Made by a program: the position numbers and the translations under genes. Below, piece after piece: positions 11,587-39,566 of a stretch of 64,000 bases of DNA. The stretch is from Nitrosopumilus sp. (lineage in GTDB: Archaea > Thermoproteota > Nitrososphaeria > Nitrososphaerales > Nitrosopumilaceae): assembly GCA_965206745.1 (NCBI GenBank), contig OZ242220.1, positions 640,001 to 704,000 of the forward strand, written 5' to 3'. Every line of letters begins with the position of its first letter. The stretch's first letter is position 1. Under the pieces are notes generated by a model. That model was not told the origin of the DNA, did not search any database, and saw nothing but the letters and a program-made list of their open reading frames with translations.

Positions 11587-11620
11587 TCCTTTTCAAAAAT
11601 TATAATTTTTAAAAACCAGT

Positions 11621-19534: not shown

Positions 19535-20533
19535 ATGATGAATGATTCTGCGATAAAGGAATTGCATCCTACAAAATATGTCAAATTGCCTAGTATCAAC
19601 TCTCTGTTGCAAATTTCACTTGGATTAATCCTGCTTGCCATGGTTTCATTTGCCCTAGTTTATGCTGAAACAATTACAGTAGATGTTGAAGGAACTTCAT
19701 ATGATGTTAATTATAATGCGACTGGAGTGGTTATTTCTGACATCGAGGTCGATACTCAATTTGTTGCTCTGATATTATCCGTTGACGTGTCTGAGTCAGG
19801 CGGCATGTTGGATATCGCGTTTGATCGTTCTTTCTTTGATACCACTGTTGACGGACTAGATGAAGAATTTCTTATTCTAGCAGATGGTGATGAACCAAAT
19901 TTTTCAGAAATTATAACTGATCAAAGTAGAACTTTGAGTGTTAAATTACCTGCAGGTACTGAGGAGGTTGAAATAATCGGTTCTACATTTGGTAGTCCTG
20001 CTTCTGTTGATACTCCTGATGTAGATGATGTCGCAGATCAAGCCGCAGCTGATCAGGCAGCCGCAGATCAAGCAGCGGCTGACAAGGCAGCAGCAGACCA
20101 AGCTGCCGCAGCTGATCAGGCAGCGGCAAATCAAGCAGCAGCAGACCAAGCTGTTGCAGACCAAGCTGCCGCCGACAAAGCCGCAGCTGATCAGGCAACA
20201 GCGGACAGAGCTGCTGCCGACAGAGCCGCAGCAGACCAAGCTGCCGCAGATCAAGCAGCAGCAGACCAAGCAATAGCAGACAATGCACGTTTAACAGAAT
20301 GTGGTCCTGGAACAATTCTTGAAGGTGGAGAATGTATTTTAGATCAAAGATGCGGCCCTGGAACCATTTTCAAAGATGGAGCATGTGTACTTGATTCAAC
20401 TTCACAACCCTCTGATTCTTCTCTAAACGGAATGGGCAAAGAATTGGTAATAGGATTTGTTATCGCATTTATAGTAGCAGGAATTGTCGGAGTTGTTTTC
20501 GGTATAATGGCCAAAGCCAGTAAGAGTAGCTAA
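19535..20533 (+). CDS. Membrane-anchored surface protein with Ala-rich pentapeptide repeat stalk
   Basis: Signal-like segment, beta-rich acidic domain, AADQA repeats, two CGPGT...C modules, C-terminal TM; exact start uncertain. Confidence 0.8.
   Translation: MMNDSAIKELHPTKYVKLPSINSLLQISLGLILLAMVSFALVYAETITVDVEGTSYDVNYNATGVVISDIEVDTQFVALILSVDVSESGGMLDIAFDRSFFDTTVDGLDEEFLILADGDEPNFSEIITDQSRTLSVKLPAGTEEVEIIGSTFGSPASVDTPDVDDVADQAAADQAAADQAAADKAAADQAAAADQAAANQAAADQAVADQAAADKAAADQATADRAAADRAAADQAAADQAAADQAIADNARLTECGPGTILEGGECILDQRCGPGTIFKDGACVLDSTSQPSDSSLNGMGKELVIGFVIAFIVAGIVGVVFGIMAKASKSS
20030..20287 (+). repeat. 17 copies of 15-bp degenerate repeat encoding (A/V/T/I)AD(Q/K/R/N)A
   Basis: Protein-level repeat with varied synonymous codons. 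Confidence 0.92.
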
Positions 20534-24603: not shown

Positions 24604-25054
24604 GATGAATTTTTCTTATGGCATTATAGGTATAGTTGGAGTATTAGCTGCAATATCAATTGGATTCATAGCAATAGACCCTACTGATGTTATTGAACCA
24701 AGAGATGTATCGCCCTCTCCACTTGTACCGGCACCTGACCCAATACCTGAACCGACACCTCCTATAGTTTTAATTCCTGCAGGTTCCGGAGTTCCAGGTT
24801 GTGATGAGACTGACGAGTGCTACCTGCCGTATGAAATCACTGTACCTGCAAGTACGACCGTATTTTGGACTAATGATGATTCCACTGTTCACACCGTAAC
24901 TAGCAAATCTGCTTCAGATACGGGTGTTCCCATCTTTGATTCTGGAATAATTAGTTCTGGCTCTGATTACGAGTTTACATTTAACGATGCAGGATCTTTT
25001 GATTATTATTGCATAGTTCATCCTTGGATGATTGGCATCGTTGATGTGCAATAA
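24596..25054 (+). CDS. Membrane-anchored blue copper (plastocyanin-like) protein
   Basis: N-terminal TM, WTNDDSTVHTVT, YYCIVHPWM type-1 Cu ligands. Confidence 0.9.
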   Translation: MDEMNFSYGIIGIVGVLAAISIGFIAIDPTDVIEPRDVSPSPLVPAPDPIPEPTPPIVLIPAGSGVPGCDETDECYLPYEITVPASTTVFWTNDDSTVHTVTSKSASDTGVPIFDSGIISSGSDYEFTFNDAGSFDYYCIVHPWMIGIVDVQ

Positions 25055-25112
25055 TTTGTCCTGAAATAAAGAAATACTGTTAATCGTGTTTGTCACCTGC
25101 TTGTCTTGAAAT

Positions 25113-25307
25113 CTACTCTTCCCTTTGTCCCCATTCATGATGGCAGTTGTTGCACATCCATTTTGGATCATGATCCGTTACTAGACATCCTCCTAAAATG
25201 ATCTCTCTTCTTTCTATCTGCTCTTCTATCTCTTTATCAAACCCTCTGTAGCCCCAAATAATTTCTGCAATCCATTCTTTGTTGCAGTTTGGACAATTCA
25301 TTGTCAT
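25113..25307 (-). CDS. Small zinc-ribbon protein
   Basis: CPNC...IIWGY...LGGC...PKWMCNNC; purine-rich GGGAGAG before the ATG at 25307. Confidence 0.7.
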   Translation of the reverse strand: MTMNCPNCNKEWIAEIIWGYRGFDKEIEEQIERREIILGGCLVTDHDPKWMCNNCHHEWGQREE

Positions 25308-25468
25308 CTCTCCCTTAACCTGTTCATCTCGTTTCCGTCTTCTGTTGCCTTCCATTTGAAAGTCTCAAACGTTTTTCTGTGATATTCTAGACGAGTTTGT
25401 GCCCTTTGCACCTCTTCTCCTTGATCTTCTTTTGCAAGAGACAAGGGAAGGGGATGTGCTGATTTCAT
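25304..25468 (-). CDS. Hypothetical 54-aa protein
   Basis: Starts directly after the upstream TAG; its TGA overlaps the next ATG; no recognisable motif. Confidence 0.35.
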   Translation of the reverse strand: MKSAHPLPLSLAKEDQGEEVQRAQTRLEYHRKTFETFKWKATEDGNEMNRLRER

Positions 25469-25588
25469 CTAGTTTTCTCCGTAGAACATTGGCTGCTCGT
25501 CTCGCTCATCTTCGAACTCTCGAATTATTCTAGGATAAAAAGAAGGCCTAGAATCTGATTCGTTTTTTTGAATGGTGTTTTGTTTCAT
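25469..25588 (-). CDS. Acidic micro-protein copy 1 (39 aa)
   Basis: MKQNTIQKNESDSRPSFYPRIIREFEDERDEQPMFYGEN; paralogue at 35560-35646 with synonymous changes. Confidence 0.75.
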   Translation of the reverse strand: MKQNTIQKNESDSRPSFYPRIIREFEDERDEQPMFYGEN

Positions 25589-25608
25589 ATATTGACTCAG
25601 TTTCTTAG

Positions 25609-25650
25609 ATTATTATGATCCATGTCAATAGTATGCATACTTTACATACT
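25609..25650. promoter_or_regulatory. 42-bp promoter/operator element, copy A
   Basis: ATTATTATGATCCATGTCAATAGTATGCATACTTTACATACT; palindrome AGTATGCATACT at 25630-25641. Confidence 0.8.
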
Positions 25651-25698
25651 AATAATTATGATGATACAATAAAATATGAACGCATTCTAAATTATCAC

Positions 25699-26247
25699 GT
25701 GGCAAATTATTATCTGGATATTGAGACTGACGGCCTTGATGAGGTCCAAAACAGGATAATTTCTATCCAATACGCAGAACTTGAGCGTGGAACCGGCAGG
25801 CAGTTAGGCGAATTAACCATCCTCAAAGAATGGGAACTGGGGGAAAAAGAGATGCTTCGACGATTCATTGAAGAATCCTCGATCACTAACAGTTACTCAT
25901 TTGATTTCGTTCCGGTTGGATACAATTTAGAATTTGAGCACAAATTCCTACTTGAAAAATCTTCAAAGTATGATCTGGCTCCAATCTCCATTACGTCTAG
26001 ACCTTGCATTGATTTGAAAAGTATTGGAATCTTGATGAACAAGGGAGAATTTAAGGGTTCAGGACTTGACAAGCTAACTGGCAAGTCTCACAGCGGAATG
26101 CCAATCATTCATTGGTATGATGTAAAAAAATACGATGAGATTGAAAATTATATCCGACAGGAAACTGAGGAATTTATAAAATGGTATGTTTGGTTACATC
26201 AGGAACTACCTGAGTTGAGAACAAAATGGCAAACTGAGTCAAATTAG
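25699..26247 (+). CDS. Stand-alone RNase H-like/DEDD 3'-5' exonuclease domain protein
   Basis: YYLDIETDG (Exo I), VGYNLEFE (Exo II-like), IENYI (Exo III-like); GTG start preferred over 25615. Confidence 0.75.
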   Translation: MANYYLDIETDGLDEVQNRIISIQYAELERGTGRQLGELTILKEWELGEKEMLRRFIEESSITNSYSFDFVPVGYNLEFEHKFLLEKSSKYDLAPISITSRPCIDLKSIGILMNKGEFKGSGLDKLTGKSHSGMPIIHWYDVKKYDEIENYIRQETEEFIKWYVWLHQELPELRTKWQTESN

Positions 26248-26985
26248 AAATTCTGCAGCGTTCTGCCCCTCCTCTGTGATTTTTATCCAGCGGTTTCTTC
26301 CAATCTTTTCAATCTCGATGAATTTCCAATCTTTTTCTAACGGCGCTATGATGTTTTTGTCAAGACTTGCAAATCTTGCCTGTGAGTGATTCCTCTCCTC
26401 TGAGTTTATTGTGATGATTCCCTGCTCCTCTGCAATTTTTGCCATTTCTTTTTTTGTTATCTTTTGATCCTTCTGCTCTGAGATGATTTTCAGTGCTGCA
26501 AGCAGTTTCGGCTTTGGAGTTTGAATCTCGTATGTTGGAAGTGCAATGGTGTCTCTGACCCCAAATGACTGCTGTTTTCCTTCAAACGCCGCATATTTTT
26601 CAGGCTGTGCATAAAATGGTTTTAGATTGTCACAGTTTTTTAAAACCATGCATGCCATCATGCATGCAATTGCTTGAATTTTAGAGCCTGATGCAACATT
26701 GACATAGATGTAGTTGTTTTTCTCATCCTCAATGATGTCCTTGATTGATTTTATCACTTTGAATATGCTCAGTCTGTCCGAATATGCGATCTTTATCTCC
26801 ACCCCTATCTTTTTGCATTCTTTTTTTATTTTCTCCATATACGGTGTGGATAGATCACTTGAGCGATTATCATGAACCAGTAACCACAATTTGTCAGCCT
26901 TTGTCTGCTTGAGAGGGATGGTGATCCTGTCTACTTCAAAGCCCAAGGGGGCAATGTGTACTCGAAATGTGGCCAAATTAGTCAT
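26239..26985 (-). CDS. DUF6293/HFX_2341-type transcriptional regulator (CARF-like Rossmann + winged helix)
   Basis: RVHIAPLGFEVDRI, YVNVASGSKI, FYAQPEKY, C-terminal wHTH ending IEKIGRNRWIKITEEG. Confidence 0.78.
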   Translation of the reverse strand: MTNLATFRVHIAPLGFEVDRITIPLKQTKADKLWLLVHDNRSSDLSTPYMEKIKKECKKIGVEIKIAYSDRLSIFKVIKSIKDIIEDEKNNYIYVNVASGSKIQAIACMMACMVLKNCDNLKPFYAQPEKYAAFEGKQQSFGVRDTIALPTYEIQTPKPKLLAALKIISEQKDQKITKKEMAKIAEEQGIITINSEERNHSQARFASLDKNIIAPLEKDWKFIEIEKIGRNRWIKITEEGQNAAEFLI

Positions 26986-26986
26986 T

Positions 26987-27028
26987 AGTATCTATAGTAT
27001 GCATACTATTGTCATGTTATATAATAAT
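26987..27028. promoter_or_regulatory. 42-bp promoter/operator element, copy B (inverted relative to A and C)
   Basis: Reverse complement ATTATTATATAACATGACAATAGTATGCATACTATAGATACT; lies between divergent regulator and PIN genes. Confidence 0.82.
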
Positions 27029-27048
27029 TTTCAAGTCTAGGATATACT

Positions 27049-27468
27049 ATGACTCAAATCCAAAACATAGCCCTTGACTCCTGCGTCGTAATTGACATCA
27101 TGGAGAAACAAAAAGTTGCCTTGAGACTCAAAGCCTGTCTCCGAGGCAAATCCGTCAAAATCATTCTCTGTGATGTGGTATTAGATGAAGTAAGGAAGGT
27201 TCGCGGTTACTTGCCTGAAAAGGTGATCGCTAGAATCTCCATTCTTTTAGGACGAAAAATAGAACTCTTTGAAGCTAGCGACTCTGATGCTGCATCTGCT
27301 AAAGCAATAACTGCGCAATTTCAAATTTGTCACAACGGTGACAACAAAATCCTGAGTCTGTGTCAGGCAAAAGACTTTGTCCTAGTGACATTTGATAGGA
27401 TGCTTCTCAAGTCAAGTCAGTTCGTTGGCATTGCAGCATTTCATCCTTCAATGGCGGGAGGAATCTAA
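27049..27468 (+). CDS. PIN-domain ribonuclease
   Basis: IALDSCVVID, VLDEV, GDNKIL, LVTFDRML acidic PIN residues. Confidence 0.85.
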   Translation: MTQIQNIALDSCVVIDIMEKQKVALRLKACLRGKSVKIILCDVVLDEVRKVRGYLPEKVIARISILLGRKIELFEASDSDAASAKAITAQFQICHNGDNKILSLCQAKDFVLVTFDRMLLKSSQFVGIAAFHPSMAGGI

Positions 27469-27570
27469 ATGAACAACTGCACAAAATGTAAAAATCTGTC
27501 TGTAATTGCAGCAAATTGGTCATGCTGTAAAAATATCCTGGATTTGGGGTTTAGGGGGTTTTTATCATAA
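27469..27570 (+). CDS. 33-aa Cys-rich micro-protein
   Basis: MNNCTKCKNLSVIAANWSCCKNILDLGFRGFLS; begins directly after the PIN stop, and its TAA overlaps the next ATG. Confidence 0.5.
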   Translation: MNNCTKCKNLSVIAANWSCCKNILDLGFRGFLS

Positions 27571-27878
27571 TGAAAAATACAGAAAAATCATCTGATTCTC
27601 ACAAAAAGAGCATGTCAGAGGCTTTTGTCAATTCCTTTGGCAGCTATCCTATTGGATACGGCTTGGGAGTGGTGATTCTGCCCCTGTCTGTGGGATGGAT
27701 TCAGGAAGACCCATTCACTGCAAACATTGCAATCACTGCCGTCTATGCTACAGTCTCCTTTGGCAGGAGTTATTTTTATCGAAGAGTGTTTGAGAGGTTT
27801 GGAATTGATGATAATTTCATTCGATTAGGCATCAAAGGACTCTTGAAATTAAAACGCGCGTTGATTTGGAGACGGTAA
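27570..27878 (+). CDS. Small two-TM membrane protein
   Basis: KKSMSEAFVN...two hydrophobic helices...SFGRSYFYRRVFE. Confidence 0.7.
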   Translation: MKNTEKSSDSHKKSMSEAFVNSFGSYPIGYGLGVVILPLSVGWIQEDPFTANIAITAVYATVSFGRSYFYRRVFERFGIDDNFIRLGIKGLLKLKRALIWRR

Positions 27879-27941
27879 AGTTGGATAAAGCTCATAATTT
27901 TATAAATGTCCATTCTTTGAATTTGTTTAGTAGGTGCTTAA

Positions 27942-30900
27942 ATGTCTGATAATTTAACTGATGGACTTTACGCAAAATTAAATGATTACAAGGACAAGCT
28001 GCTCCGATTAGGCAAATCAAATCGCTGTATCTGCCTTAGCAGAATATACAACAAGCATAACTTTGATTTGTCACGATTATTGGAAAACCATTCAAAAAAT
28101 ATTGATGACTTGATTGAGCAATCATTTAAACGAAAAAAATCTGTTTGTATTTTACCTGATTCTGATTCTTCAGAGGAAGCCGATGTTATGAGAAGGCATC
28201 TGAAAGATTTAGCAAGGAATACCAAGCAGCTCGAAGATGAAACTGGTTCCCAATACTGTTATTTTGGATTCCCTTTTTTAGAAGGACATATTGATCAAGA
28301 ACATTACCTACGTGGTCCCCTGGTCTTGTTTCCGATTTCAATCTATTCTGGAAGAGAAAGAAACACCGGTGGCTGGTTTGTAAAATTTACTGATGCCTCC
28401 CCCATTTTTAATCACACACTCTTTGCAGCCCTTAAAAAAATAGGCGGGTATCAAATAGATGATGATCTTGAATCTGATTTTGAGGACATGCTGTCTTCAT
28501 TTGTGTCTGTAAACAATCAAGACACCCAAAATGATTTTATCCAAAATCTATCCAAATTTCTAGTTGCCAATGGACTCCCATTGAATTCCCAAAATGCAGG
28601 AACTCTAAATGACAAATCAAATTCCACATTGCCGTTGAAAAATATCACCAAGGATGAGATTGACGCACTAGAGGCGAGGCCTCTGGGAATTTCTAACTAT
28701 AAAATAATCGGCAGTTTTCCACAAGGAGAGAGTGCAATTTATCATGACTATGAAAATCTAATTTCAAAGATTCAAGATGGCGACAAAAATGATTTCATTG
28801 CAGATCTCTTGGGTGAGGCTGGTTCCCCTGTGGACTTTGCAGAGGATGTCGATGATGAAAATATTGAGAATCTTGACAAAGTTCGTGACATGGATTTGAA
28901 TTTGATTTTACCTAGTGATTCCTCACAGGATCGAGTGGTTTTATCTTCCCAAAACCAAAAAATCACCCTTGTAAGAGGACCTCCAGGCACAGGAAAATCC
29001 CAAGTTATAGTTAATGTAATCTCAAATGCACTCTCCAAGGGACAGACAGTTCTCGTTGTATGTCAAAAAAGAGCGGCATTGGAGGTTGTTCACCAGAGAC
29101 TTGGTGAGAAGGGCCTTGATAGATATGCCGTTTTGTTAAACAAAGAGAAAGAAGACCGTGCACACATGTACAGTCAATTAAAACAGATTCTGGAATCCCC
29201 AAATCCTATCGATGATGATAAAAAAGAGATTCTTGAAACCATATCAAACGAGATTGATGACTTGATAAAAAAACACTCTGAAATTTCTTTTGCCTTGTCT
29301 AAAAAGTATTTTGGCGGAATCACGATTCGTGATCTTTACACGAAGGCTCTTTCAGACTATTCTAAAAAACTGGATCTGGGTGGAATTGGAATTCAGTATC
29401 CTGAATTAGATAATTTCCTTTTTATTCTATCACAAGTTGAAGAAAATTACAAAGAATTTGAAAGAGATGATTATTCATGGAAAAATCGCAAAAATTTCCC
29501 TGAATTAAACTCATCTGATAAAAACAAGATCAAAGACATTCTCGAAGACATTTTATCAAAATCTAAAAACTGCATTATTCTTTCTGACAAACAGGACCAG
29601 AATACCTTGATCGATCTTGCCACTGCATTCTCTGAATCAAATTCAACAATTACTGAGTTGAATCAAAAAATTAATCTGCATACCGAATCTATACAAAAAC
29701 TCTCTGCTGCTCATAATGTCTCTGTTCCTCTTACAAATCTAGATGACTTGATCAAATGTGTTGATGCAGGATTGCTTCTTTGGAATAAATTCCAAAATTA
29801 TGATCAAATTATACAGGTTAAAGAAAATCATCTTGTTGAGGATTCTAAAGATCAACATGTGGATTTACTTGGAACCTTTTCAAATTCTCAAGTAAAGCAA
29901 TCTTTTTGGAAAAAACTTACCGATTCAGAAACAAAACGCAAGGCAAAACTGCAAAAAGATTTTCTGCAAAGACCTGAAAACATGGGTAAAAATCCTGATG
30001 ATCTCAAAAATATGCTGCAAAATGGGCTTGATCTGTGGAATTTGGTCACAAATCACGCTCAAAAACCACATATCTTTGAAAAATCATTTGTCCTCCCAAA
30101 CGACTCTGATCAGAGTCGTTTGCTGCACGCTCTCCAAAATCTAAATGCTGATTCCCTATCATTAAAAGAAAACTCTGATAAATTACAATCTACCCTTGAA
30201 TCATTAAGGGCAATATTTGAGAAAAATGATCTATCTTTTGACAAATCATCTCCGCTTCTTACTCCGGTTCAAAATGGGGGCGACATTATTGATCAAATTG
30301 ACTCATTTTCAAATTTTGTAAATAACGATGAAATTAAAATCATTCGTGAAAAATTATCAAATACTGACGAGTTATCATCTCATATTCAGAACTTGCTTGA
30401 TCATCTAAATGATTTTGACAGATTACAGTCACATGACATTAGAAAATCTGATTTGAATTCAATGCAACAAAATGTCTTGAATCAGTGTGTCGCAAAAATT
30501 GGACTGGAAGAAAATTGGAAGGAACTCGTCAAACAGGAAATATATCATTACTGGATTGAAGAAATAGAAAAAGATCGACCAATTCTAAAAGCTGGACATT
30601 TTGATGATTACAAGCAAAATCAAATCAGACTGTCTGAGTTGCTAGAAAAAAAATTCGATCTGCTTGTGAGAAAAATAATCAACTCTATTGAAGCAAGTGC
30701 TGACTTTCGTCCTGGAATGGGCAACAAAAGAACTCAAAGAGAGGCAGACTACAATGCCTTAAACCATGAATTAAGTAAAAAAAGAAAAGTCAAATCAGTC
30801 AGAAAACTCTTGGAAGAATATGAGCATATTTTATTTGATATTGCGCCATGTTGGCTTGCATCCCCTGAAATGATCTCAAATATCTTTCCATTAGAGCAAA

Positions 30901-32219
30901 ATCTGTTTGATCTAGTAATTGTTGATGAAGCAAGCCAACTTGCAGCAGAAAGGGCATTGCCATTTCTCTACAGAGGTGAGAGGATTGTTATTGCAGGTGA
31001 TGAAAAACAGCTAAAACCTCACGATTTATTCCAAATCAAGGAAGAAGACAGTGAAGATGAGGAAGACGACACAGTCAATATTGAAAGTCTGCTCCTTTTG
31101 GCAAAGAGACGCCACCATTCAACAACGCTGAGGTGGCACTATCGGTCACAATGGCAACAACTAATTGATTTTTCAAATCATGCGTTTTATAATGGCGTTC
31201 TGCAGGTTTCCCCTAACGTTGATCTAAAGACATCCGAGCCCCCGATTCAATGGATAGACTGTCCTGAGGGATTGTGGGAAAACAGATCAAATGTCGCAGA
31301 AGCTGCCAAAGTCGTTGATACTCTGTATGGTATTTTGCAAGATTTCCAAGGCCGTAAAATTCCAACCATCGGTATCATCACATTCAATGATCAGCAAAGA
31401 AATGTCATTATGGATGAAATCGAAAATAGACAGAAAAAGGATCCTGCTTTTGATGAATTATACAAGAAAATTGAAACCCCTGCTAGTGGAAAAAAAGACC
31501 ATGAGATTTTTGTAAGAAATATTGAAAATGTCCAAGGTGATGAACGAGACATCATAATTTTCTCAGTGGGTTATGCAAAAGATCCTGAAGGGAAATTCCG
31601 TCTACAGTTTGGTACTTTGAATCAGGATGGGGGTGAAAACAGACTAAATGTCGCAATAACCCGTGCCAGCCAAAAAATAATTGTTGTATGCTCAATTGAT
31701 CCTCGTGATATGAAGGTGGAGGGAACAAAGAATCTCGGACCAAAACGCCTGAAGGACTTTTTAGATTATGCAAATGCTGTCAGTAACAATGATGTTGAAA
31801 AAATAAAGCAAATCTTGGAATCTCTAAGCTCTGCAATGAACAAAACACAGCAACAAACAAAACAATTTGATAGTGAATTTGAAGAATTGGTCCATGATGA
31901 GCTTGAGAAGATAGGCTATGCTGTGGACACTCAGGTGGGACAATCTGGATATAGGATTGATTTGGCAGTGGTTCACCCAAAAGATCCATCAAAATACATT
32001 CTAGGTGTGGAGTGTGATGGTGCAATGTTCCACTCTGGGAAAAGTGTTAGAGAGCGTGATGTTACGAGACAAAAATTCCTCGAGAGGAGGGGTTGGAATA
32101 TTGATAGAATTTGGAGTAGGCACTGGTGGAGAAATCCAGATAGGGAGGTACAAAGAATAAAGGAAAGGATAGACTTGTTGGTGGCCAATCCATCTTTAAA
32201 AGGAGATTGTGACAATTGA
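27942..32219 (+). CDS. DUF4011 + SF1 (Upf1/DNA2-like) helicase + Vsr/REase-like nuclease, 1425 aa
   Basis: KLLRLGKSNR and GPLVLFPI (DUF4011-like), GPPGTGKS, VDEASQ, GDEKQL, HYRS, ENVQGDERD, RLNVAITRA, C-terminal YRIDLAV...VECDG...RGW. Confidence 0.88.
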   Translation: MSDNLTDGLYAKLNDYKDKLLRLGKSNRCICLSRIYNKHNFDLSRLLENHSKNIDDLIEQSFKRKKSVCILPDSDSSEEADVMRRHLKDLARNTKQLEDETGSQYCYFGFPFLEGHIDQEHYLRGPLVLFPISIYSGRERNTGGWFVKFTDASPIFNHTLFAALKKIGGYQIDDDLESDFEDMLSSFVSVNNQDTQNDFIQNLSKFLVANGLPLNSQNAGTLNDKSNSTLPLKNITKDEIDALEARPLGISNYKIIGSFPQGESAIYHDYENLISKIQDGDKNDFIADLLGEAGSPVDFAEDVDDENIENLDKVRDMDLNLILPSDSSQDRVVLSSQNQKITLVRGPPGTGKSQVIVNVISNALSKGQTVLVVCQKRAALEVVHQRLGEKGLDRYAVLLNKEKEDRAHMYSQLKQILESPNPIDDDKKEILETISNEIDDLIKKHSEISFALSKKYFGGITIRDLYTKALSDYSKKLDLGGIGIQYPELDNFLFILSQVEENYKEFERDDYSWKNRKNFPELNSSDKNKIKDILEDILSKSKNCIILSDKQDQNTLIDLATAFSESNSTITELNQKINLHTESIQKLSAAHNVSVPLTNLDDLIKCVDAGLLLWNKFQNYDQIIQVKENHLVEDSKDQHVDLLGTFSNSQVKQSFWKKLTDSETKRKAKLQKDFLQRPENMGKNPDDLKNMLQNGLDLWNLVTNHAQKPHIFEKSFVLPNDSDQSRLLHALQNLNADSLSLKENSDKLQSTLESLRAIFEKNDLSFDKSSPLLTPVQNGGDIIDQIDSFSNFVNNDEIKIIREKLSNTDELSSHIQNLLDHLNDFDRLQSHDIRKSDLNSMQQNVLNQCVAKIGLEENWKELVKQEIYHYWIEEIEKDRPILKAGHFDDYKQNQIRLSELLEKKFDLLVRKIINSIEASADFRPGMGNKRTQREADYNALNHELSKKRKVKSVRKLLEEYEHILFDIAPCWLASPEMISNIFPLEQNLFDLVIVDEASQLAAERALPFLYRGERIVIAGDEKQLKPHDLFQIKEEDSEDEEDDTVNIESLLLLAKRRHHSTTLRWHYRSQWQQLIDFSNHAFYNGVLQVSPNVDLKTSEPPIQWIDCPEGLWENRSNVAEAAKVVDTLYGILQDFQGRKIPTIGIITFNDQQRNVIMDEIENRQKKDPAFDELYKKIETPASGKKDHEIFVRNIENVQGDERDIIIFSVGYAKDPEGKFRLQFGTLNQDGGENRLNVAITRASQKIIVVCSIDPRDMKVEGTKNLGPKRLKDFLDYANAVSNNDVEKIKQILESLSSAMNKTQQQTKQFDSEFEELVHDELEKIGYAVDTQVGQSGYRIDLAVVHPKDPSKYILGVECDGAMFHSGKSVRERDVTRQKFLERRGWNIDRIWSRHWWRNPDREVQRIKERIDLLVANPSLKGDCDN

Positions 32220-32845
32220 GTGCAAAATCAACTGCAGGCTATGCCCTTCTGTTCATCTTTCTTTTCTTTCTGATTCTGGTACATCCTGGTTTCGTACTGT
32301 TATTTTTACTTGCAATAATTATAGTCGTTACATACAAGATAAAACAAAGAATAAAATCAAAACCTGATTCAAGCCGTTCTTATTCTTCAAAAAATCCTCA
32401 AAAAAATTCATTTGCAGATTCAGTCTCTGACACAGATCCTGAAAATCTTTCAGAAGACAATGAGAATATTATCAAGAAAGACAAACCAGACACGTCTCCT
32501 TTTGAGTCTCTGTCACAAGAGTCGCCCTCAACTGGTGAAGATTCGCCAATTTCAAAAAAACCCAAAACAGGTATTGATGCAACGGGATCCCCAAAAACTC
32601 AAAAAAAATCATTTGATGCAAATTATTGGAATTTTAATCCCCATGATACTCTTCAGTCTAAAAAACTGAAATTTCTAAAAGCCATTGATGTTTGCGAAGA
32701 AAATAATCTTGAAAGTAAATCCAGAATGCGTCGACTGAGGATGAAAATAGATAGATGGGATGTTGAAAATGAGCGTGATATTGAGGCCATGATTCCTGAC
32801 TATGAATCTCTTTTAGATTTGATTGAAGAATTTGAGAATCGATGA
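32216..32845 (+). CDS. Hypothetical membrane-anchored protein
   Basis: N-terminal hydrophobic hairpin, S/K/D-rich linker, helical C-terminus; overlaps helicase stop. Confidence 0.65.
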   Translation: MSAKSTAGYALLFIFLFFLILVHPGFVLLFLLAIIIVVTYKIKQRIKSKPDSSRSYSSKNPQKNSFADSVSDTDPENLSEDNENIIKKDKPDTSPFESLSQESPSTGEDSPISKKPKTGIDATGSPKTQKKSFDANYWNFNPHDTLQSKKLKFLKAIDVCEENNLESKSRMRRLRMKIDRWDVENERDIEAMIPDYESLLDLIEEFENR

Positions 32846-32869
32846 TTTCTTTTAAATTTTTGGCACCGC

Positions 32870-35536
32870 TCATGTAGTTGATTTTGTTAATTTATCCTTG
32901 ATGGCCAGATACAATGGTTTTTCATTTTTCTCAGCCAGCAATTCCTGAATGAATTTCTGTGGATCTTTTTTCCATTCTAGAACTTTTCGCAGGTGTTTCT
33001 CAAAGGTAGGATAGACATTTTTTGTCCCTTCGCTGATCTCTTGACCAAATTTGCCTGTATTGATATTGCCTCGCAGTGCTACATATACAACCTCTGTGGC
33101 GATTTGCTCCTCTGGGATTCCTTTCAAGCCTGAAAGCATTTTTTTATACGCTGCAAGCTGTCTTTTGTGCTTTGAATCAGTTTTTTTGTCCGTCTTGTAA
33201 TCCACAATAAGATATCCTGTATCATGTTTGAATACTGCATCAACAAATCCTGTAAACTGGATATTGTCCTCACTATAATCAGTCAGGGAACTGAGTAAAA
33301 CCTTGAGATGTTTCTCAGTTGAATCAATCTTCAGACCTGGATATTTTTCTTTGAGTTCCTTTATTGCATCTAGTCCATTCTGAGCAGCCTTTGCCACATT
33401 GTCTTTATAATTTCCAATCTCTGTCTTGTCTTTTAGTATGTTTGCTAGTGCATCATGGACTTGTGAGCCAAAATTCATTGCAGTAGAATAATGTGGAATA
33501 TTGATAATATTTTTTTCCAAAAATTCGTATGGCTTTGTCGTGATACTAGAATATGAAAAATGATCAACCTTTGCAAAATAATCTTCAATATATTTTTCTA
33601 GCCATCTGTCCTCACCTTTGAGTAACTTCTCTGAATCTGAAAATCTGCCTCCAATAAATAATGAATATGCTTCAGTCAGTCTGTTGTCTAGTTTAGTTGT
33701 AATCAATTCATTTTTTATGTCATCAACTTCCATCTCTGAAAGATCCTCGATGTGATAGTTTTTTGATTCCTTATCTTCTGCAATTACTATCAGTTGTTCT
33801 TTTGCTCTTGTAAATGCAACAAAATCTATTCGTAGTGAATCCTCAGCCATCTCTGATTCAACTTGTATGTCGCTTGAACTAAGAATTGATCTGGTAATGC
33901 TGTCAATAAAACTGGTTTTTCTAGAGTTCTTTGGAATGTAAACCACTATGTCAAAAGATCTTCCTTTTGCTTTGTGAACTGTAGTTAGTGTGATCTTTGA
34001 TTCATTTCTCTGTTCAATGTAGGACTCTTCTCCAATTGAGATAAAATCAAGCAATCCGTCTAATGATGGGGTCTTAAATGTCAGGTATTCGTCGATTTCC
34101 TGTTTTGCTGTCATTGCCGATGAGAACCATTCTGATCCCTTTGCGATGCACATTGGCAAAATAGTGTCTTCAAACCTCTTATCCAGATCCTCTCTTTGCA
34201 GTTTTAATCCCCATGATTTTATTCTGGATAGTTTCTCAGATTCTTTTGCTTTGAATGCATTGGAAAATGCAAATGCCTCTTTGAGTGAGTATGGGGCAAA
34301 TATGGTAAATGCGGCTGAAATTTTATCCTCTATCCCATCAGAGAGTAGTCCTTTGATGTATCCCTGGATCTCATTTTTGGCTTGCTGGGTTGATGCCTGT
34401 GATGATGTGGATGAATATTCTATGCTGTTTGAATCAAGGAATTTTGAAATTTTGATTATCTGACTGTTTGTTCTGGTAATGATTCCAACTGATTTCTCTG
34501 GATTCTCCTCAATTATCTCTAAAATTTTTGAGAGATGGGCACTAGAGATTACTTTTGGAATCTCTCCTGTTTTTTCAGATCGAAATTCTGAGAGTTCATC
34601 CTCAAACATCTCTTTATGCTTAGTTTTATTAAGAAAATATTGTTTTGAATAGTCGAGGATTTGCTGTGAACTGCGTCTGTTAATCGAAAGCATCTTTACT
34701 TTACACGTCTCTGTAAATTTTTGGAAATTTTTAACTGATCCGCCCTGAAAACCAAAGATTGCCTGCTTTGCATCACCTACCAAAAATAGATGCTCTGCAA
34801 CCATTGTTGCAATTTCAACCTCTATCTCATTCATGTCTTGCATTTCATCAACTAGTACATGTTCAAACTTTTTTCCGTGAAACTTTTCTTTGAATATCAA
34901 AAGCATGTCTGAATAATCTACTGCTTCAAGCTTTGATTTCTCATACTCCTTATAGGCCTCAATAAAATATCCTAAAAATGACTTCATCTCCTCAATCGTA
35001 TACGTTGAAGATTCATCAAAGTTCTCTTCCAGTATTGCAGTAGCTTTGCTGATGTTGATTTTCTCGGGAGTTATTCCAAAATTTTTGATATACCTAATGG
35101 CATTCTCTGTTTTTGGGACTATTGTGGAAACAATGTAATCTTTTCCATAGTTTAGTGCCCTGTTTTGCTCAAAGCTGCTGAGAATTGAAAATCGCATTAA
35201 ATTATTTCCAACTATGTCACCTGAAATTATGTTTTCATCAAGAAGATAGTTGTATGCAAAGCTGTGAAATGTGTGTATGTTTATCTTCATGATCTCCAAG
35301 TCGGAGAATTTACCCCTCCCTCTGTCATAGATTGCATCAAACATTTCTTTTTTAGCTTTTTCGGTGAATGTGACACATAGGATGTTTTCAGGGCTTACCC
35401 CCTCTTCAAGTAGTTTGATTACTTTGAATGACAGTGTTGTGGTTTTTCCAGTACCTGGATTGGATACTACAACTGTGTCTTCCTTTGAATCGATGATTTC
35501 CTGCTGCTCTTTTGAAAGTTCCATGGTATGTTTCAT
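32870..35536 (-). CDS. UvrD/PcrA-like SF1 helicase fused to PD-(D/E)xK nuclease
   Basis: NPGTGKTT, VTFTEKA, VDEMQD, VGDAKQAIFGFQG, TVHKAKG, VAFTRAK; C-terminal GFVDAVF...IVDYKT; AGGAG before ATG. Confidence 0.9.
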   Translation of the reverse strand: MKHTMELSKEQQEIIDSKEDTVVVSNPGTGKTTTLSFKVIKLLEEGVSPENILCVTFTEKAKKEMFDAIYDRGRGKFSDLEIMKINIHTFHSFAYNYLLDENIISGDIVGNNLMRFSILSSFEQNRALNYGKDYIVSTIVPKTENAIRYIKNFGITPEKINISKATAILEENFDESSTYTIEEMKSFLGYFIEAYKEYEKSKLEAVDYSDMLLIFKEKFHGKKFEHVLVDEMQDMNEIEVEIATMVAEHLFLVGDAKQAIFGFQGGSVKNFQKFTETCKVKMLSINRRSSQQILDYSKQYFLNKTKHKEMFEDELSEFRSEKTGEIPKVISSAHLSKILEIIEENPEKSVGIITRTNSQIIKISKFLDSNSIEYSSTSSQASTQQAKNEIQGYIKGLLSDGIEDKISAAFTIFAPYSLKEAFAFSNAFKAKESEKLSRIKSWGLKLQREDLDKRFEDTILPMCIAKGSEWFSSAMTAKQEIDEYLTFKTPSLDGLLDFISIGEESYIEQRNESKITLTTVHKAKGRSFDIVVYIPKNSRKTSFIDSITRSILSSSDIQVESEMAEDSLRIDFVAFTRAKEQLIVIAEDKESKNYHIEDLSEMEVDDIKNELITTKLDNRLTEAYSLFIGGRFSDSEKLLKGEDRWLEKYIEDYFAKVDHFSYSSITTKPYEFLEKNIINIPHYSTAMNFGSQVHDALANILKDKTEIGNYKDNVAKAAQNGLDAIKELKEKYPGLKIDSTEKHLKVLLSSLTDYSEDNIQFTGFVDAVFKHDTGYLIVDYKTDKKTDSKHKRQLAAYKKMLSGLKGIPEEQIATEVVYVALRGNINTGKFGQEISEGTKNVYPTFEKHLRKVLEWKKDPQKFIQELLAEKNEKPLYLAIKDKLTKSTT

Positions 35537-35559
35537 TGTCTCCTAAAGTATGGAATGTC

Positions 35560-35646
35560 TTAGTTTCGAGCATAAAAGAGTGGCTCTTCATCGCCTTCAT
35601 CCTCAAACTCTCTGATGATTCTCGGATATATTGTTGGTTTTTGCAT
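35560..35646 (-). CDS. Acidic micro-protein copy 2 (28 aa)
   Basis: MQKPTIYPRIIREFEDEGDEEPLFYARN; first ORF upstream of the helicase-nuclease. Confidence 0.75.
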   Translation of the reverse strand: MQKPTIYPRIIREFEDEGDEEPLFYARN

Positions 35647-35666
35647 GAATCTGATTGAATTCTAAT

Positions 35667-35708
35667 ATTATTATGAAACATGATAATAGTATGCATACTT
35701 TGAATACT
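35667..35708. promoter_or_regulatory. 42-bp promoter/operator element, copy C
   Basis: ATTATTATGAAACATGATAATAGTATGCATACTTTGAATACT; 36/42 identical to copy A. Confidence 0.8.
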
Positions 35709-35886
35709 GTTTGAAATACTCTTTAATCTCAAGATTCATGCAGGAATTTTCTATGAATTTGTTAACTTTGTTGCCTTGTGTGGCCCCTGGTTTTAGGCAT
35801 GATGATTCATTGATCTCTAGTTTAGGCATATGCAGCAAACCGGAAAAAACAATTCGCTAGAGAGTCGGATCTGCATTTTTGATTGT

Positions 35887-38319
35887 TTATCTTTGATTCA
35901 TTTTGGAGATCTTTGAGACTCCGGTCTCCTTTGAAATCTGAAAGATGTTATCCACATACGTCTCTAGTTCTCTCTCGTGTGAAACAAGCACAATCTGTTC
36001 GGATTTTAGTTCATCTAGCAATTCCCGAATCTTTCCTAACTGGTTTTTAGAAAATCCATCGGTGGGTTCATCCAAAATCAGCAAATTGGACTTTATGGAT
36101 TCAGTCTCCTTTCTCATCAGAGAATTCAGAGTCAGTCTGTAGGCTAGTGCGATGCTTGTCTTCTCGCCGCCTGACAGGTATCCTACATCTTGATCGTATT
36201 CGTCTTGTCTTACAATTGGGGTGAAATCCTCATCGATTTGGGATTCCTTGGTGGAGTCTTCGATTAAAATTGAGTACCACCTTGTATATGTCTCGTTGAA
36301 ATCCTGCAAGATTGATAGCAATACCTGCTTTTCAATCTGGGATACTGTTGGAATAAAAAATGTTTCTAGCCATCGCTGGAACTCTGTAAACTTTCTGTGC
36401 CTTGCCTCGTACCTTCTGGACTCTGTGATCTTTGATTCACCTTGTCTTATTTTTTCAGTCTGATTTTTTAGATTCTCCAAAGATGCCGCAATCATGCCGG
36501 AAACCTTTGCCATCTCTTTTCTGAGTGAATCTAGTTCCCTCTCCTTGCTTGATGTGTCCTCATCAGAATCTGCAAAAGAACCAAGCTTTGCCTGTATCTG
36601 CTCTAGTTCCAGATCCATCTCTGAAATCTGGGATGCTAGCAAATCTGCCTCCTCTCTATGCTCGGTAACTGTTTTCTCTATCTTTTGCTTGGTTTTGACT
36701 ATCTGCTTTATCTGGTCTGTCAAACTCTCAAATTGCATGACCCTGTCTTTTAATTCATTCAGATATGTCACTGGATTCTTGTCTTCAAATTCTGGATCTT
36801 GCAGCTTTCTTTCCAGTTCCTTGATTTCTCGGTCTAGTTGGTTCTCCCTTGCAGATTTTGCCTCAAACTCTTCTATTCTTGGAATGATTATTTGAATCTG
36901 TGAGATCTTCTCCGTGTATGACTCTATCTTACTCTGGATTTCTTTGAATTCTTTGTTTGACGCAAAAAATGAATTGGCAGTTGATATCAGTTCATCAGTC
37001 AATGATCTTACTTTTCTTTCTTTATCATCAACTAGACTGTGGTGGTGTTCATCGGTAATCGTCTGCTTGCATGTGGGGCATGCGTTTCCTAGCTTGGAAA
37101 ATTCTGCAATCTCCTCTTCCAGTGATTTTTTGAGTGCCTCGCTCTGAATTTTTTGACTGTTTACCTTCTCTAATCCTTCTTTGATCTCGCTTGCAATCTT
37201 TTCTAGTTCTTCCTTCTCTTGACATAGGCCATTTAATGTACTCTCAAGTGTTTCCTTCTCCGAATCTATTTTTTTACCGAATCTCTCTTTTAATCGTACA
37301 ATATCCTGATGTATGCTGTCCTTCTCAGACTCTGACCTTATTATCTCGTCATTAATCTTTTGGAATCTTTTAATCTCCGCTACGATATCTGGAATGCTTT
37401 TTTTGGTTTCAGGTTTTTTTATTTTTGCTAGTTTCTCTAATTTATGATTGTCTTCTTTTAACTCATTTTTGTAATCTGCAAATTTCTGCTTGATTCTCTC
37501 TATTCGTGCCTTATTTGTGGCAATCTTTTCACTGGTATTCTCTTTCTTTGATTCAAGCTTTATTTTTTCGCTATTCTTTGCTTGTAACTCTTTTAGTTCT
37601 TGCATTTTCTTATTCTCGTCTGCTTGAAGAGTTTTTTGCAGCTCTTGTTTTTGTGAAATCTCAGATTTTAGTTTGGATTTGATTTTTTGGGATTCGCTGA
37701 TCCCAGATTCCAATTCAGAAATGTTGCTGAACTTTCCTTCGAGTATTCCTGCTTTTACTTTGATTTCGTATAATACTTCACGAGCATTTGACTCGACAAT
37801 GCTGTAATCTTCAATTCCAAAGGCCTTGCGAATGGTCTCAAGACGCCTTTTGGGGTTGAAAAGCACATCCTTCATGGCCTCCTGAGGCGTAAATATGGCA
37901 TATCGAAATATCCTGCTTTCAGCCTTTGGGTCTGCTGGCTCGTTGAACTTTAGTATCTGCAAAACTCGCTGTTTTAATTCAGATGGCGATAGCAGTTCTT
38001 TTTGACCGCCGATCTTTATCCATGAGTTTTTTGAATCCTGACTGACTGTAGAGCCTTTTCTTAGCAATATTCGCTTGATCTCGTATCTCTCCCCATCTGT
38101 TGAAAAATCCAAAATCACATGACCCATATCTGATTTTTTTGCCAATAGTGCATCTGCCTTTTGAGATCCTAGGCCAAACAATGCAAACTCTATTGCCATG
38201 AGTACAGTTGATTTGCCGCTTCCGATGTCGCCCTCAAACAGAGTGATCCCTCTGGGAAATTCCACTTCTTCGTGTTGATAGCTTCTGATGTTCTCAATAA
38301 TTATTGAATTAAGAATCAT
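35887..38319 (-). CDS. rad50: Rad50 ATPase
   Basis: IENIRSY, GDIGSGKST, coiled coil with CPTC zinc hook, LSGGEK, LILDEPT, VSH; start at MILNSII. Confidence 0.92.
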   Translation of the reverse strand: MILNSIIIENIRSYQHEEVEFPRGITLFEGDIGSGKSTVLMAIEFALFGLGSQKADALLAKKSDMGHVILDFSTDGERYEIKRILLRKGSTVSQDSKNSWIKIGGQKELLSPSELKQRVLQILKFNEPADPKAESRIFRYAIFTPQEAMKDVLFNPKRRLETIRKAFGIEDYSIVESNAREVLYEIKVKAGILEGKFSNISELESGISESQKIKSKLKSEISQKQELQKTLQADENKKMQELKELQAKNSEKIKLESKKENTSEKIATNKARIERIKQKFADYKNELKEDNHKLEKLAKIKKPETKKSIPDIVAEIKRFQKINDEIIRSESEKDSIHQDIVRLKERFGKKIDSEKETLESTLNGLCQEKEELEKIASEIKEGLEKVNSQKIQSEALKKSLEEEIAEFSKLGNACPTCKQTITDEHHHSLVDDKERKVRSLTDELISTANSFFASNKEFKEIQSKIESYTEKISQIQIIIPRIEEFEAKSARENQLDREIKELERKLQDPEFEDKNPVTYLNELKDRVMQFESLTDQIKQIVKTKQKIEKTVTEHREEADLLASQISEMDLELEQIQAKLGSFADSDEDTSSKERELDSLRKEMAKVSGMIAASLENLKNQTEKIRQGESKITESRRYEARHRKFTEFQRWLETFFIPTVSQIEKQVLLSILQDFNETYTRWYSILIEDSTKESQIDEDFTPIVRQDEYDQDVGYLSGGEKTSIALAYRLTLNSLMRKETESIKSNLLILDEPTDGFSKNQLGKIRELLDELKSEQIVLVSHERELETYVDNIFQISKETGVSKISKMNQR

Positions 38320-39565
38320 CTCTGTCAAGTCCCAAAACTGCCAAAGCGCTATCCTTGATTCTTGGAATGTATTCGTTCTTCTTTTCATTGATCAATGGCG
38401 GTTGGCCCAACCCTGATAGCAGCTTTTTTGCAAGTTTGATCCCCTCATCATCCAACAACTCTGAATAGTCAAATCGTAACTGCCCGATGTTTTCCGAGAA
38501 CACATTTGTTTCAATCTCTTCCCTGTTTGCACCCTTTGCCTTTGTAATCGAGTACTCTTTTGATGTCAATTGACTCTTGCTTATGTTGACCATTATTGCG
38601 TCTCGTTGGTTGAGTTCGTCCCTGATTGCAGAAATATCCACATCGGCAGTTTTGCCTCTGGTCAGCTCACCTTTGACCTTGATAATTACAACCTTGTCTG
38701 CTGGATCGATACCTTTGGTTTTTTCCTGCAACTCTTGATTGATTGATTCGGCCTTTCTGTTATTTGCATCGACTTCGATAACCTCATATGCCGTGTTTTC
38801 AATCTCTACAAACTCTACTGATTTTATGACGTCCTCAAATTCAACTAAAACAAAGCCGCGCTTTTGTCCCCTTGCATTATCCTCCAAATCTGCGTAATAT
38901 CCTGCAAATGGGGTTCCGGGATACACGACATTGGGATATTCCTCAAATGACTGGTGATTGAACTTGTGCATGTGTCCTCCTGCATAGTATGAGAATCCTT
39001 TGGGCAGCAGAGATAGGGGCATTTGCGCCCCGTCCATGCCTGTATCTGCCTTCATATCTGCAATTCCGCCATGAAACAAGAATATCTTGAGCCCTGGTTC
39101 TGCCTCCAAAGGGTCTCGGTCAAGCTTTTCATACCACTCTCTGTCTCTTCCTACCTTCAGACCAGACAAACCGGTAATCTTGACACCTGTCTTTTGATCA
39201 ACTAAAAATTTCAAAGATATGGTGCCATCCTCATGACTTGTGGCACTAGTGACTTTGGTGATGTAGCCGATCTCTGCTAGCAGATCAATTACCGAGTTTG
39301 ACACTGGGGAAAAGTCATGACTTCCATATATTACATAGATTGGAATTTGTGCATCGTGGACCTGGCGAAACTTTGCAAATGCAAATTTCTGAACCCTCAT
39401 CTCCGGAATGTTTACATGAAATAAATCCCCCGGAATCAGGATAAAATTCACCCTTTTGGAGATGCATTCATCAATTGCTTTCTCAAACACCTGCTGTTCT
39501 ATCTTTTGCAGGGCTTCGTGTTTTTGAAATCCCAGGTGAATGTCTGACAAATGCGCAAACAGCAA
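38309..39565 (-). CDS. mre11: Mre11 nuclease
   Basis: SDIHLG, GDLFH, GSHD, GGHMH, YPGTP metallophosphoesterase motifs. Confidence 0.92.
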   Translation of the reverse strand: MLFAHLSDIHLGFQKHEALQKIEQQVFEKAIDECISKRVNFILIPGDLFHVNIPEMRVQKFAFAKFRQVHDAQIPIYVIYGSHDFSPVSNSVIDLLAEIGYITKVTSATSHEDGTISLKFLVDQKTGVKITGLSGLKVGRDREWYEKLDRDPLEAEPGLKIFLFHGGIADMKADTGMDGAQMPLSLLPKGFSYYAGGHMHKFNHQSFEEYPNVVYPGTPFAGYYADLEDNARGQKRGFVLVEFEDVIKSVEFVEIENTAYEVIEVDANNRKAESINQELQEKTKGIDPADKVVIIKVKGELTRGKTADVDISAIRDELNQRDAIMVNISKSQLTSKEYSITKAKGANREEIETNVFSENIGQLRFDYSELLDDEGIKLAKKLLSGLGQPPLINEKKNEYIPRIKDSALAVLGLDRDDS

Positions 39566-39566
39566 T

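Follow-up and report, generated by a model that had tools for sequence, protein, structure and literature searches.

A conserved micro-protein gene family linked to a CARF-type regulator in Nitrosopumilus and related archaea

Introduction

What is encoded by two very short open reading frames (ORFs) that follow copies of the same DNA element, and with what might their products work? The question is raised by a stretch of 64,000 nucleotides (nt) from a Nitrosopumilus sp. genome (assembly GCA_965206745.1, contig OZ242220.1, positions 640,001 to 704,000 of the forward strand), hereafter called the window, which harbours ORFs of 39 and 28 amino acids (aa) with an identical core of 11 residues. Their host is an ammonia-oxidising archaeon, as the genome carries archaeal AmoA (E 1.7e-116), ribosomal protein L15e and a Rad50-Mre11-HerA-NurA operon. 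An initial annotation of the window had described the two ORFs and their alignment correctly and had listed as conceivable roles a nucleic-acid mimic, an antitoxin for the PIN protein or the nucleases, a ligand for the regulator, and a leader peptide. It had not noted that both ORFs lie on the minus strand, nor a third copy of the upstream element, the breadth of the family and its short form, or a viral copy of the peptide motif. We conclude with high confidence that the ORFs are real coding genes linked to the gene of a regulator, here called REG, and we propose more tentatively that the peptide acts together with that regulator.

A conserved family of protein-coding micro-genes

Comparison of the two genes with each other gives a first view of how they evolve. 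Across the 11 identical core residues, seven codons differ, all synonymously and exactly as listed in the initial annotation. Over the 26 aligned codons, six are identical, 12 differ synonymously and eight non-synonymously (51/78 bases identical), and these two are the only copies of the peptide in the 1.86-Mb genome. The same pattern is found among relatives. In 21 homologous cores of 30 nt, the minor-allele fraction is 0.071, 0.029 and 0.357 at the three codon positions, the variation at the first position consisting of CGN/AGR arginine switches, and pairwise comparisons of these cores yield 1024 synonymous versus 231 non-synonymous codon differences. The early proposal that the codon pattern reflects selection on a peptide is thus strongly supported by both the codon-position variation and the synonymous excess. 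An alignment of 38 peptides shows the core residues P, R, E, F and D unchanged throughout and an N-terminal part that varies in length and sequence. The reading frame is kept at 20 of the 21 first loci, the exception (L015) having no in-frame start. At homologous loci, the following gene starts right at the stop codon or overlapping it (TAGATG, ATGA); in the window, the TAG of the 39-aa gene directly abuts the ATG of a downstream 54-aa ORF. GGAGG precedes the ATG where the peptide gene follows a PIN gene.

Could the conservation nevertheless come from a DNA or RNA element, or from an ORF on the opposite strand, with no protein made from the sense frame? One antisense frame is open across the core in 38/38 loci, with a majority-residue conservation of 0.884 versus 0.929 for the sense frame. 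Against this explanation, a start codon is present in antisense frames at 19 of the 38 loci at most, and the periodicity of the variation and the CGN/AGR switches are synonymous in the sense frame only. Furthermore, Rfam returned 0 matches at E up to 1 across positions 24900-36000, and the folding of both mRNAs is no better than that of shuffled sequences (z-scores of -0.60 and -0.83). A non-coding or antisense origin is close to refuted, and we give it almost no weight. The initial annotation had named conservation through an RNA or DNA element as an outcome that would speak against a peptide, and had suggested a homologue search with neighbourhood analysis; the search brought up frame-retaining homologues, with REG beside most of them. 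On this comparative evidence, both ORFs belong to a conserved family of protein-coding micro-genes of 22-45 aa under purifying selection. The case illustrates that a conserved gene family can fall below customary ORF-length cut-offs. Among sequencing runs recorded as RNA, none contains the stretch. Two sequencing runs, whose label as RNA is a guess, cover positions 25098-25457 and 25350-25526 at 90-99% likeness and stem from a related strain; they are not counted as evidence here.

Distribution and forms of the peptide

A six-frame search with the 39-aa peptide identified relatives in 15/36 other genomes of the genus and in 0/24 genomes of the order's other families. With a profile of the long form, we found matches in 68/231 genomes of the window's family, spread over 13 genera, and in 0/169 genomes of 20 other families of the class, one unpublished genome being included in these tallies. 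Among 1.84 billion representative proteins scanned, 101 matched at E up to 0.001, most of them 24-70 aa long. Public records label relatives 'hypothetical protein', without a Pfam domain; a member of 42 aa is recorded in the cultured species Nitrosopumilus ureiphilus. As for the two peptides of the window, they match 0 families in Pfam (E up to 10) and in NCBIfam (E up to 1), their best matches by sequence in the PDB are at chance level (E 0.65 and 1 over 7-11 residues), and a protein atlas likewise gave chance-level entries only, with a feature score of 0.75, under the lead level. By the literature searches made, the family appears to be undescribed, and no leaderless micro-protein gene paired with a regulator of this kind came up in them; the passages considered from PMC6563490 hold nothing relevant.

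All members share the core [YF]-P-x-[IV]-[IRK]-[RS]-x-F-[ED]. In the long form, YPRIIREF[ED]D is followed by an acidic tail ending in EPMxYG. A short form of 23-27 aa, exemplified by MQQKLASEQNEVSVYPRVRSVFEN, is found in three genera, denoted g35, g29 and g37; it stops right after the core and has no acidic tail. In g35, 8/8 sampled REG loci carry a short form of 23-25 aa. At the g35 locus examined in detail, this gene is the only cistron of its unit; its stop codon is where a convergent hemerythrin gene ends, and housekeeping genes make up the rest of the neighbourhood. In two g35 genomes, the sole exact copy of the operator described below lies between the genes of REG and the peptide, and sites with one mismatch are at control level. 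In this genus, REG and the short form alone make up a two-gene module.

Modelled alone, the peptide has a pLDDT (predicted local distance difference test) of 68.3 and no predicted secondary structure, which suggests that it has no stable fold of its own. With a conserved core of 10 residues and no predicted fold, it is unlikely to be the nucleic-acid mimic initially considered. Several known short motifs were also compared with the peptide and dropped. A ubiquitin- or Pup-like GG tail does not fit, as the second Gly is not conserved in the 38-peptide alignment, nor does a C-terminal HbYX motif, since Tyr is penultimate in only two sequences. The consensus of the PCNA-interacting protein (PIP) box is Q-x-x-[LIM]-x-x-[FY]-[FY]; the core P-R-I-I-R-E-F-E lacks the Gln, and at positions 7-8 it has Phe and Glu in place of two aromatic residues.

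REG and the peptide gene as a constant pair

REG lies inside the fetched flank at 15/19 peptide loci and at 26/28 further ones, seven of these 28 repeating earlier places. In the window's genus, 35 peptide-positive genomes were scored in both searches, and REG is present in every one of them. The peptide gene is usually the first cistron, with its promoter back to back with the REG gene; in some genomes, it comes second, after a PIN gene, and PIN is beside the peptide gene in 7/19 loci. What follows, here called the cargo, may be PIN, the 54-aa ORF with a zinc ribbon, DUF7220, a nuclease of the metallo-beta-lactamase/beta-CASP type, a UvrD/PD-(D/E)XK protein of about 1,000 aa, SNase, HNH, or nothing. 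REG and the peptide gene are the constant pair, and the genes after them vary or are absent.

The reverse relationship is looser. We sampled 42 REG-centred loci regardless of the presence of the peptide: 26 have a peptide gene in the expected slot, four a short remnant and 12 none, the latter representing two diverged REG types with other operators. At loci L181, L184, L185 and L171, remnants of the long form (MKT(I/T)T..L(Q/H)...) run into a stop after about 16 codons and DUF7220 is the next gene. Such apparent remnants show that the peptide gene can decay while REG and cargo persist. Five other REG loci in four genomes of the window's genus (L196-L200) have a palindrome of the form ACTGTGCAGG...CACAG and no peptide gene. 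The divergent region of this REG subtype is GC-rich and nearly identical across the four genomes, and the subtype may be a mobile or recently spread variant.

The N-domain family of REG is present in 161/268 genomes of the window's family, including 34/34 in g35 and 53/105 in the window's own genus (tallies that include five unpublished genomes). In a sister family, REG matches occur in 28/61 genomes; 16 loci were fetched and 14 of them inspected, all of which have other operators and no peptide of this type. Because 12 of the 42 REG-centred loci and the 14 sister-family loci have no peptide, REG can work without it.

A shared operator with fixed promoter geometry

Upstream of both micro-genes, at 25602-25650 and 35660-35708, we found a 49-nt repeat with 84% identity between copies. 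The shared element reported initially therefore exists, although it is longer than the 42 bp first given, and a third, inverted copy is present at 26979-27031. The core of the repeat, TAGTATGCATACT, has seven matches in the window at up to two mismatches, versus 1.08 expected, a number reached in 0/100 shuffles, and exact copies in the 1.86-Mb genome are confined to these three places. Common to the REG gene and the peptide gene is the operator AGTATG-N9-CATACT.

Promoters were compared in 28 upstream regions anchored on the ATG of the peptide gene. The half-site CATACT ends 41 nt before the ATG in 22/28 loci and 40-44 nt before it in the other six. Past CATACT come a TGACATG-like block and then a ATATAATAAT box, whose last base is about 20 nt before the ATG. 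The column of this A/T box is kept across the aligned regions and the 20 nt between box and ATG are not conserved. Operators are of more than one type, with an inner AGTATG that creates a perfect 12-bp palindrome in one and the spacer TTCATTAAA in another. Archaeal TATA boxes are centred near -26 relative to the transcript start. With that spacing, the A/T box would set the transcript start at the ATG of the peptide gene, and the peptide mRNA is probably leaderless. The divergent REG gene has its start codon 2-4 nt from the operator, so that a protein bound there would cover REG's own transcription start. In the window, this geometry serves three units, namely the 39-aa gene with the 54-aa ORF and the zinc ribbon, the PIN operon, and the 28-aa gene with the UvrD-type nuclease.

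REG is a CARF and winged-helix regulator

The Pfam matches of REG, which is encoded by a single gene in the genome, are HFX_2341_N (1e-35), DUF6293_C (2e-25), Csa3_N and CARF_Card1. Its AlphaFold model has a pLDDT of 88.8, and a Foldseek search with this model gave Csa3 with cyclic tetra-adenylate (cA4) as the best PDB match (E 3.8e-8), the top matches ranging from E 1e-7 to 1e-8; the ring nucleases Sso1393 and Sis0811, Can2, Card1 and Csm6 are among the other structural matches. By its predicted structure, REG is a regulator of the Csa3/HFX_2341 kind, with a Rossmann-like CARF N-domain and a winged-helix DNA-binding domain. Against the NCBIfam equivalog HFX_2341, it scores 18.2 bits, the cut-off being 500. 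No match to Cas10 or SMODS above the curated cut-off was found in the genome. REG retains a loop of the CARF type, NVASGSK. Csa3/HFX_2341 regulators share with REG both Pfam domains and the structural matches to CARF proteins. HFX_2341 of Haloferax mediterranei is a repressor; unlike in the present system, a partnered micro-protein goes unmentioned for it in the available part of the publication (PMC11434293).

A viral copy of the motif

The segment KKKPT-FPRI[IR]REF-[EP]DEKDEDPM[VI]Y stands between repeated W-E-x-W-L-E-K motifs in four long representative proteins, of 402, 405, 296 and 155 aa. On a 64.6-kb IMG/VR record rated 100% complete, which is a tailed-virus genome, the gene of the 402-aa protein comes immediately after that of the large terminase subunit. 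A homologue with 91% identity, on another viral contig, is missing the motif at that position, which marks the motif as an accessory insert of the viral protein. This copy was found via the long representative P0098, and among the 80 loci kept only one has the motif. A search of the viral collection with the peptide alignment gave 68 pattern matches, none of which was confirmed, and the operator pattern was not found on the 64.6-kb record. Terminase relatives (38-51% identity) occur in 3/271 assemblies of the archaeal family, and in the four such loci that were fetched the motif was found in none. The virus presumably infects this archaeal lineage, a reading that the terminase relatives in these three assemblies fit and do not prove. 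The presence of a viral copy suggests that the partner of the peptide also matters in infection.

In two IMG/VR loci (L137, 8001-9209, and L079, 5438-6991), large, charged, low-complexity proteins are encoded right after the large terminase. They contain 4-5 copies of W-E-x-[WF]-L-[ED]-K, with one more in the next ORF, and have no PHROG or Pfam match.

Discussion

How might the peptide act? We favour, tentatively and without calling it probable, that it is a trans-acting docking peptide in a regulatory cassette with REG, its putative partner. REG would bind the operator, repress its own gene and gate the peptide promoter. The peptide, disordered alone, would act in trans as a short docking helix, offering a hydrophobic face of I, I and F after a Tyr-Pro cap. 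By feeding back on REG or on the REG-operator complex, it would determine how long a response lasts or at what threshold it begins, and the variable nucleases would carry that response out. Peptide and REG would together form a self-contained regulatory cassette, and we assign the peptide to it rather than to the cargo because it is retained with REG whatever follows, even nothing. The virus would have taken over the motif, presumably in order to target that partner as well. Among the roles initially considered, a ligand for the regulator is the leading candidate, REG being the one constant neighbour, with binding that is putative; the caution expressed at the time, that the function cannot be read from the sequence, is borne out.

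Several observations weigh against this proposal. The peptide is absent from 12/42 REG loci and from 14/14 inspected loci of the sister family. REG is assigned to the operator by its position alone, the contact between peptide and REG is putative, and the evidence for transcription and translation of the micro-genes is their sequence. The CARF-type loop of REG points to a nucleotide rather than a peptide as the ligand of the sensor pocket. Finally, the core is identical in modules whose REG is only 41-49% identical to that of the window and whose operators differ. As a paralogue-specific partner would be expected to co-vary, an identical core despite a diverged REG favours either a common cellular target or a conserved surface of REG. 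Co-folding of two REG chains with the 39-aa peptide, run without controls, scored 0.00 versus a mark of 0.32 and counts neither way. A further idea, which we regard as unlikely, is that the peptide might be a genetically encoded CARF ligand, a 10-residue helix that would bind and switch REG in a two-gene circuit independent of cyclic-oligoadenylate signalling, and that viruses of ammonia-oxidising archaea would have copied it to disarm the nuclease regulon under this circuit.

The main rival to a REG-docking peptide is an effector that REG regulates and that docks on a conserved host hub of replication, repair or division, pausing the cell while nucleases and helicases act. Small SOS-induced division inhibitors of bacteria are the model for such a factor. 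The invariance of the core across modules with diverged REG and different operators would be explained, as would the two-gene modules, in which the peptide is the sole local output. The module is beside Rad50-Mre11-HerA-NurA in several genomes and drives nucleases of the UvrD and other types; moreover, the viral motif lies among other repeated short motifs, as expected of a hub-binding peptide. However, the partner is putative here too, the PIP box is unfit, with no Gln and one aromatic at positions 7-8, and the patchy presence in the genus, where REG is found in 53/105 genomes, would be unusual for a core checkpoint. We consider this explanation possible, if somewhat unlikely.

Alternatively, the peptide might counteract the nucleases encoded with it, PIN or others, as an antitoxin or inhibitor. 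It is acidic, in 7/19 loci its gene comes straight after a PIN gene and has a ribosome-binding site, and the cargo consists of potentially toxic nucleases. Yet the window's own PIN gene is followed by a different ORF of 33 aa, PIN is missing from most loci with the peptide, the folds of the cargo nucleases are unrelated, and the two-gene modules contain no nuclease, which makes the antitoxin initially proposed a poor fit and, in our view, a quite unlikely one. A role in cis is very unlikely, whether the ORF were to let ribosomes enter a leaderless operon or to encode an arrest peptide by which the cistrons after it are tuned. It would account for the fixed leaderless position of the first cistron, for stop codons that overlap the next start in long-form loci, and for the conservation of the peptide, as arrest peptides are typically conserved. 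But in the short-form loci the gene is monocistronic and its stop meets the end of a convergent gene, so that the leader peptide of the initial list suits these forms poorly; the PIN-linked forms are second cistrons, and the viral copy lies within a 402-aa protein. As for an antiviral decoy, in which a host peptide would copy a segment of a viral protein to interfere with the virus, the motif and the preceding KKKPT are indeed found in the viral-type proteins P0070, P0098, P0088 and P0079, the first of which adjoins a terminase. Nevertheless, only four of the 13 fetched representatives (101 matched in all) are of viral type, the 91%-identical homologue without the motif indicates that it is accessory in the virus, and the module is universal in g35, where it sits among housekeeping genes. 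We find the decoy highly improbable.

The arrangement is of a known kind, that of a small protein partnered with a transcription factor, here a CARF regulator, and it can be set beside several described systems. In the bacterial SOS response, palindrome-binding autorepressors control inhibitors such as SulA and the 29-aa SidA. The likeness would lie in a repressor that regulates itself through a palindrome in its own promoter, in a regulon of helicases and nucleases, the UvrD type among them, and in a very small protein that serves as dedicated output. This comparison is drawn from the genes. Unlike LexA, REG combines CARF and a winged helix, and the peptide is soluble and acidic rather than membrane-bound. 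The 23-aa sP26 of Methanosarcina mazei acts on glutamine synthetase. It is likewise a peptide of about 25 aa in an archaeon, and the peptide described here is also proposed to act by binding a larger protein; the two are unrelated in sequence, and the gene that accompanies the present family encodes a regulator, not an enzyme.

VapBC systems come to mind because of the PIN gene beside a small acidic ORF in 7/19 loci. However, the order is reversed, the peptide coming after PIN, most loci lack PIN, and the PIN gene of the window lacks the peptide. Type II antitoxins combine an N-terminal DNA-binding domain and a toxin-binding tail; the peptides of this family have 22-45 aa, no domain match and no predicted secondary structure. 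Phage arbitrium (AimR-AimP) and RRNPP systems consist of a receptor-regulator and an adjacent peptide gene. As in these systems, the gene of a regulator is constantly accompanied by that of a tiny peptide, and the genes under control, which lie downstream, vary, whereas REG is a CARF protein rather than a TPR receptor and the genes are arranged divergently. On reading the aligned sequences, no export signal or hydrophobic segment was seen; the N-terminal parts are hydrophilic (MKQNTIQKNESDS..., MQQKLASEQNE...).

The locus offers a compact, testable system comprising one regulator, one operator of fixed geometry, one peptide of 25-40 aa and changing nucleases. If the peptide is the partner of the regulator, it would represent an undescribed peptide input or output for CARF-type regulators. 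Should its target instead be the machinery of replication or division, the peptide would serve this lineage as a checkpoint-like factor.

Gene order and other features of the window

The coordinates of the micro-genes, of their control elements and of the neighbouring genes are given in Table 1.

Table 1. Features of the module and its surroundings in the window
Feature	Position	Strand	Basis or remark
Micro-protein gene, long form, 39 aa (MKQNTIQKNESDSRPSFYPRIIREFEDERDEQPMFYGEN)	25469..25588	-	Listing, homologues and codon test
Second micro-protein gene, 28 aa (MQKPTIYPRIIREFEDEGDEEPLFYARN)	35560..35646	-	Listing; first cistron before the UvrD/PD-(D/E)XK helicase-nuclease
REG, 248 aa, HFX_2341_N (CARF-like) and DUF6293_C winged helix; Csa3-like fold (predicted)	26239..26985	-	Pfam and model
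Operator copy 1, AGTATG-N9-CATACT, including the 12-bp palindrome AGTATGCATACT	25630..25650	.	Repeat and pattern search
Operator copy 2, between REG gene and PIN operon; REG start codon 2 nt away	26987..27007	.	Repeat and pattern search
Operator copy 3, one mismatch to AGTATG-N9-CATACT	35688..35708	.	Repeat and pattern search
A/T box ATAATAAT, 20 nt before ATG of 39-aa gene	25609..25616	-	Putative promoter of leaderless mRNA
A/T box ATAATAAT, 20 nt before ATG of 28-aa gene	35667..35674	-	Upstream alignment
A/T box ATAATAAT, 20 nt before ATG of PIN gene	27021..27028	+	Sequence
54-aa ORF after 39-aa gene; conserved small family (cluster c6)	25304..25468	-	Recurs in relatives
Zinc-ribbon protein, CxxC...CxxC, 80 aa as listed; conserved part from near MNCPNC	25113..25355	-	Recurs in relatives
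RNase H-like 3'-5' exonuclease, divergent from 39-aa gene	25615..26247	+	Relatives
PIN-domain protein, first cistron after operator copy 2	27049..27468	+	Domain match
33-aa Cys-rich ORF (MNNCTKCKN...CC...)	27469..27570	+	Begins at first base after PIN stop codon
DUF7220 small membrane protein, commonest cargo gene of the module	27570..27878	+	Domain match
DUF4011 / SF1 helicase / MTES_1575 endonuclease, 1425 aa	27942..32219	+	Domain match
UvrD helicase and PD-(D/E)XK nuclease, 888 aa, downstream of 28-aa gene	32870..35536	-	Domain match
Complete Rad50-Mre11-HerA-NurA operon, adjoining the promoter of the 28-aa gene	35887-42247	-	Domain matches

The 54-aa ORF and the zinc-ribbon ORF that come after the 39-aa gene are conserved small families, and their order is kept in other genomes. 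The ORF of the RNase H-like exonuclease, as listed, begins within the operator; its relatives have 182 aa and start with MG(S/N)YYLDIET, and its true start is probably the GTG at 25699 (182 aa), about 23 nt past a AATAAAAT box. The Cys-rich ORF of 33 aa holds the post-PIN slot that the micro-protein occupies in other genomes; the two sequences are unrelated, and the ORF has no match in Pfam. Rad50-Mre11-HerA-NurA genes next to a REG module were also observed at loci L033, L034, L038 and L046 in other genomes.

Elsewhere in the window, several repeat arrays lie within ORFs. Nine tandem units of 54 nt, five of them identical, are present at 11050-11684, within the ORF at 10849-11586, and fourteen 15-nt repeats at 19999-20307 encode an Ala/Asp/Gln-rich pentapeptide array in the ORF at 19535-20533. 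Three tandem repeats of 84 nt (95-96% identical) are found at 43266-43531, within a minus-strand ORF (42572-43798).

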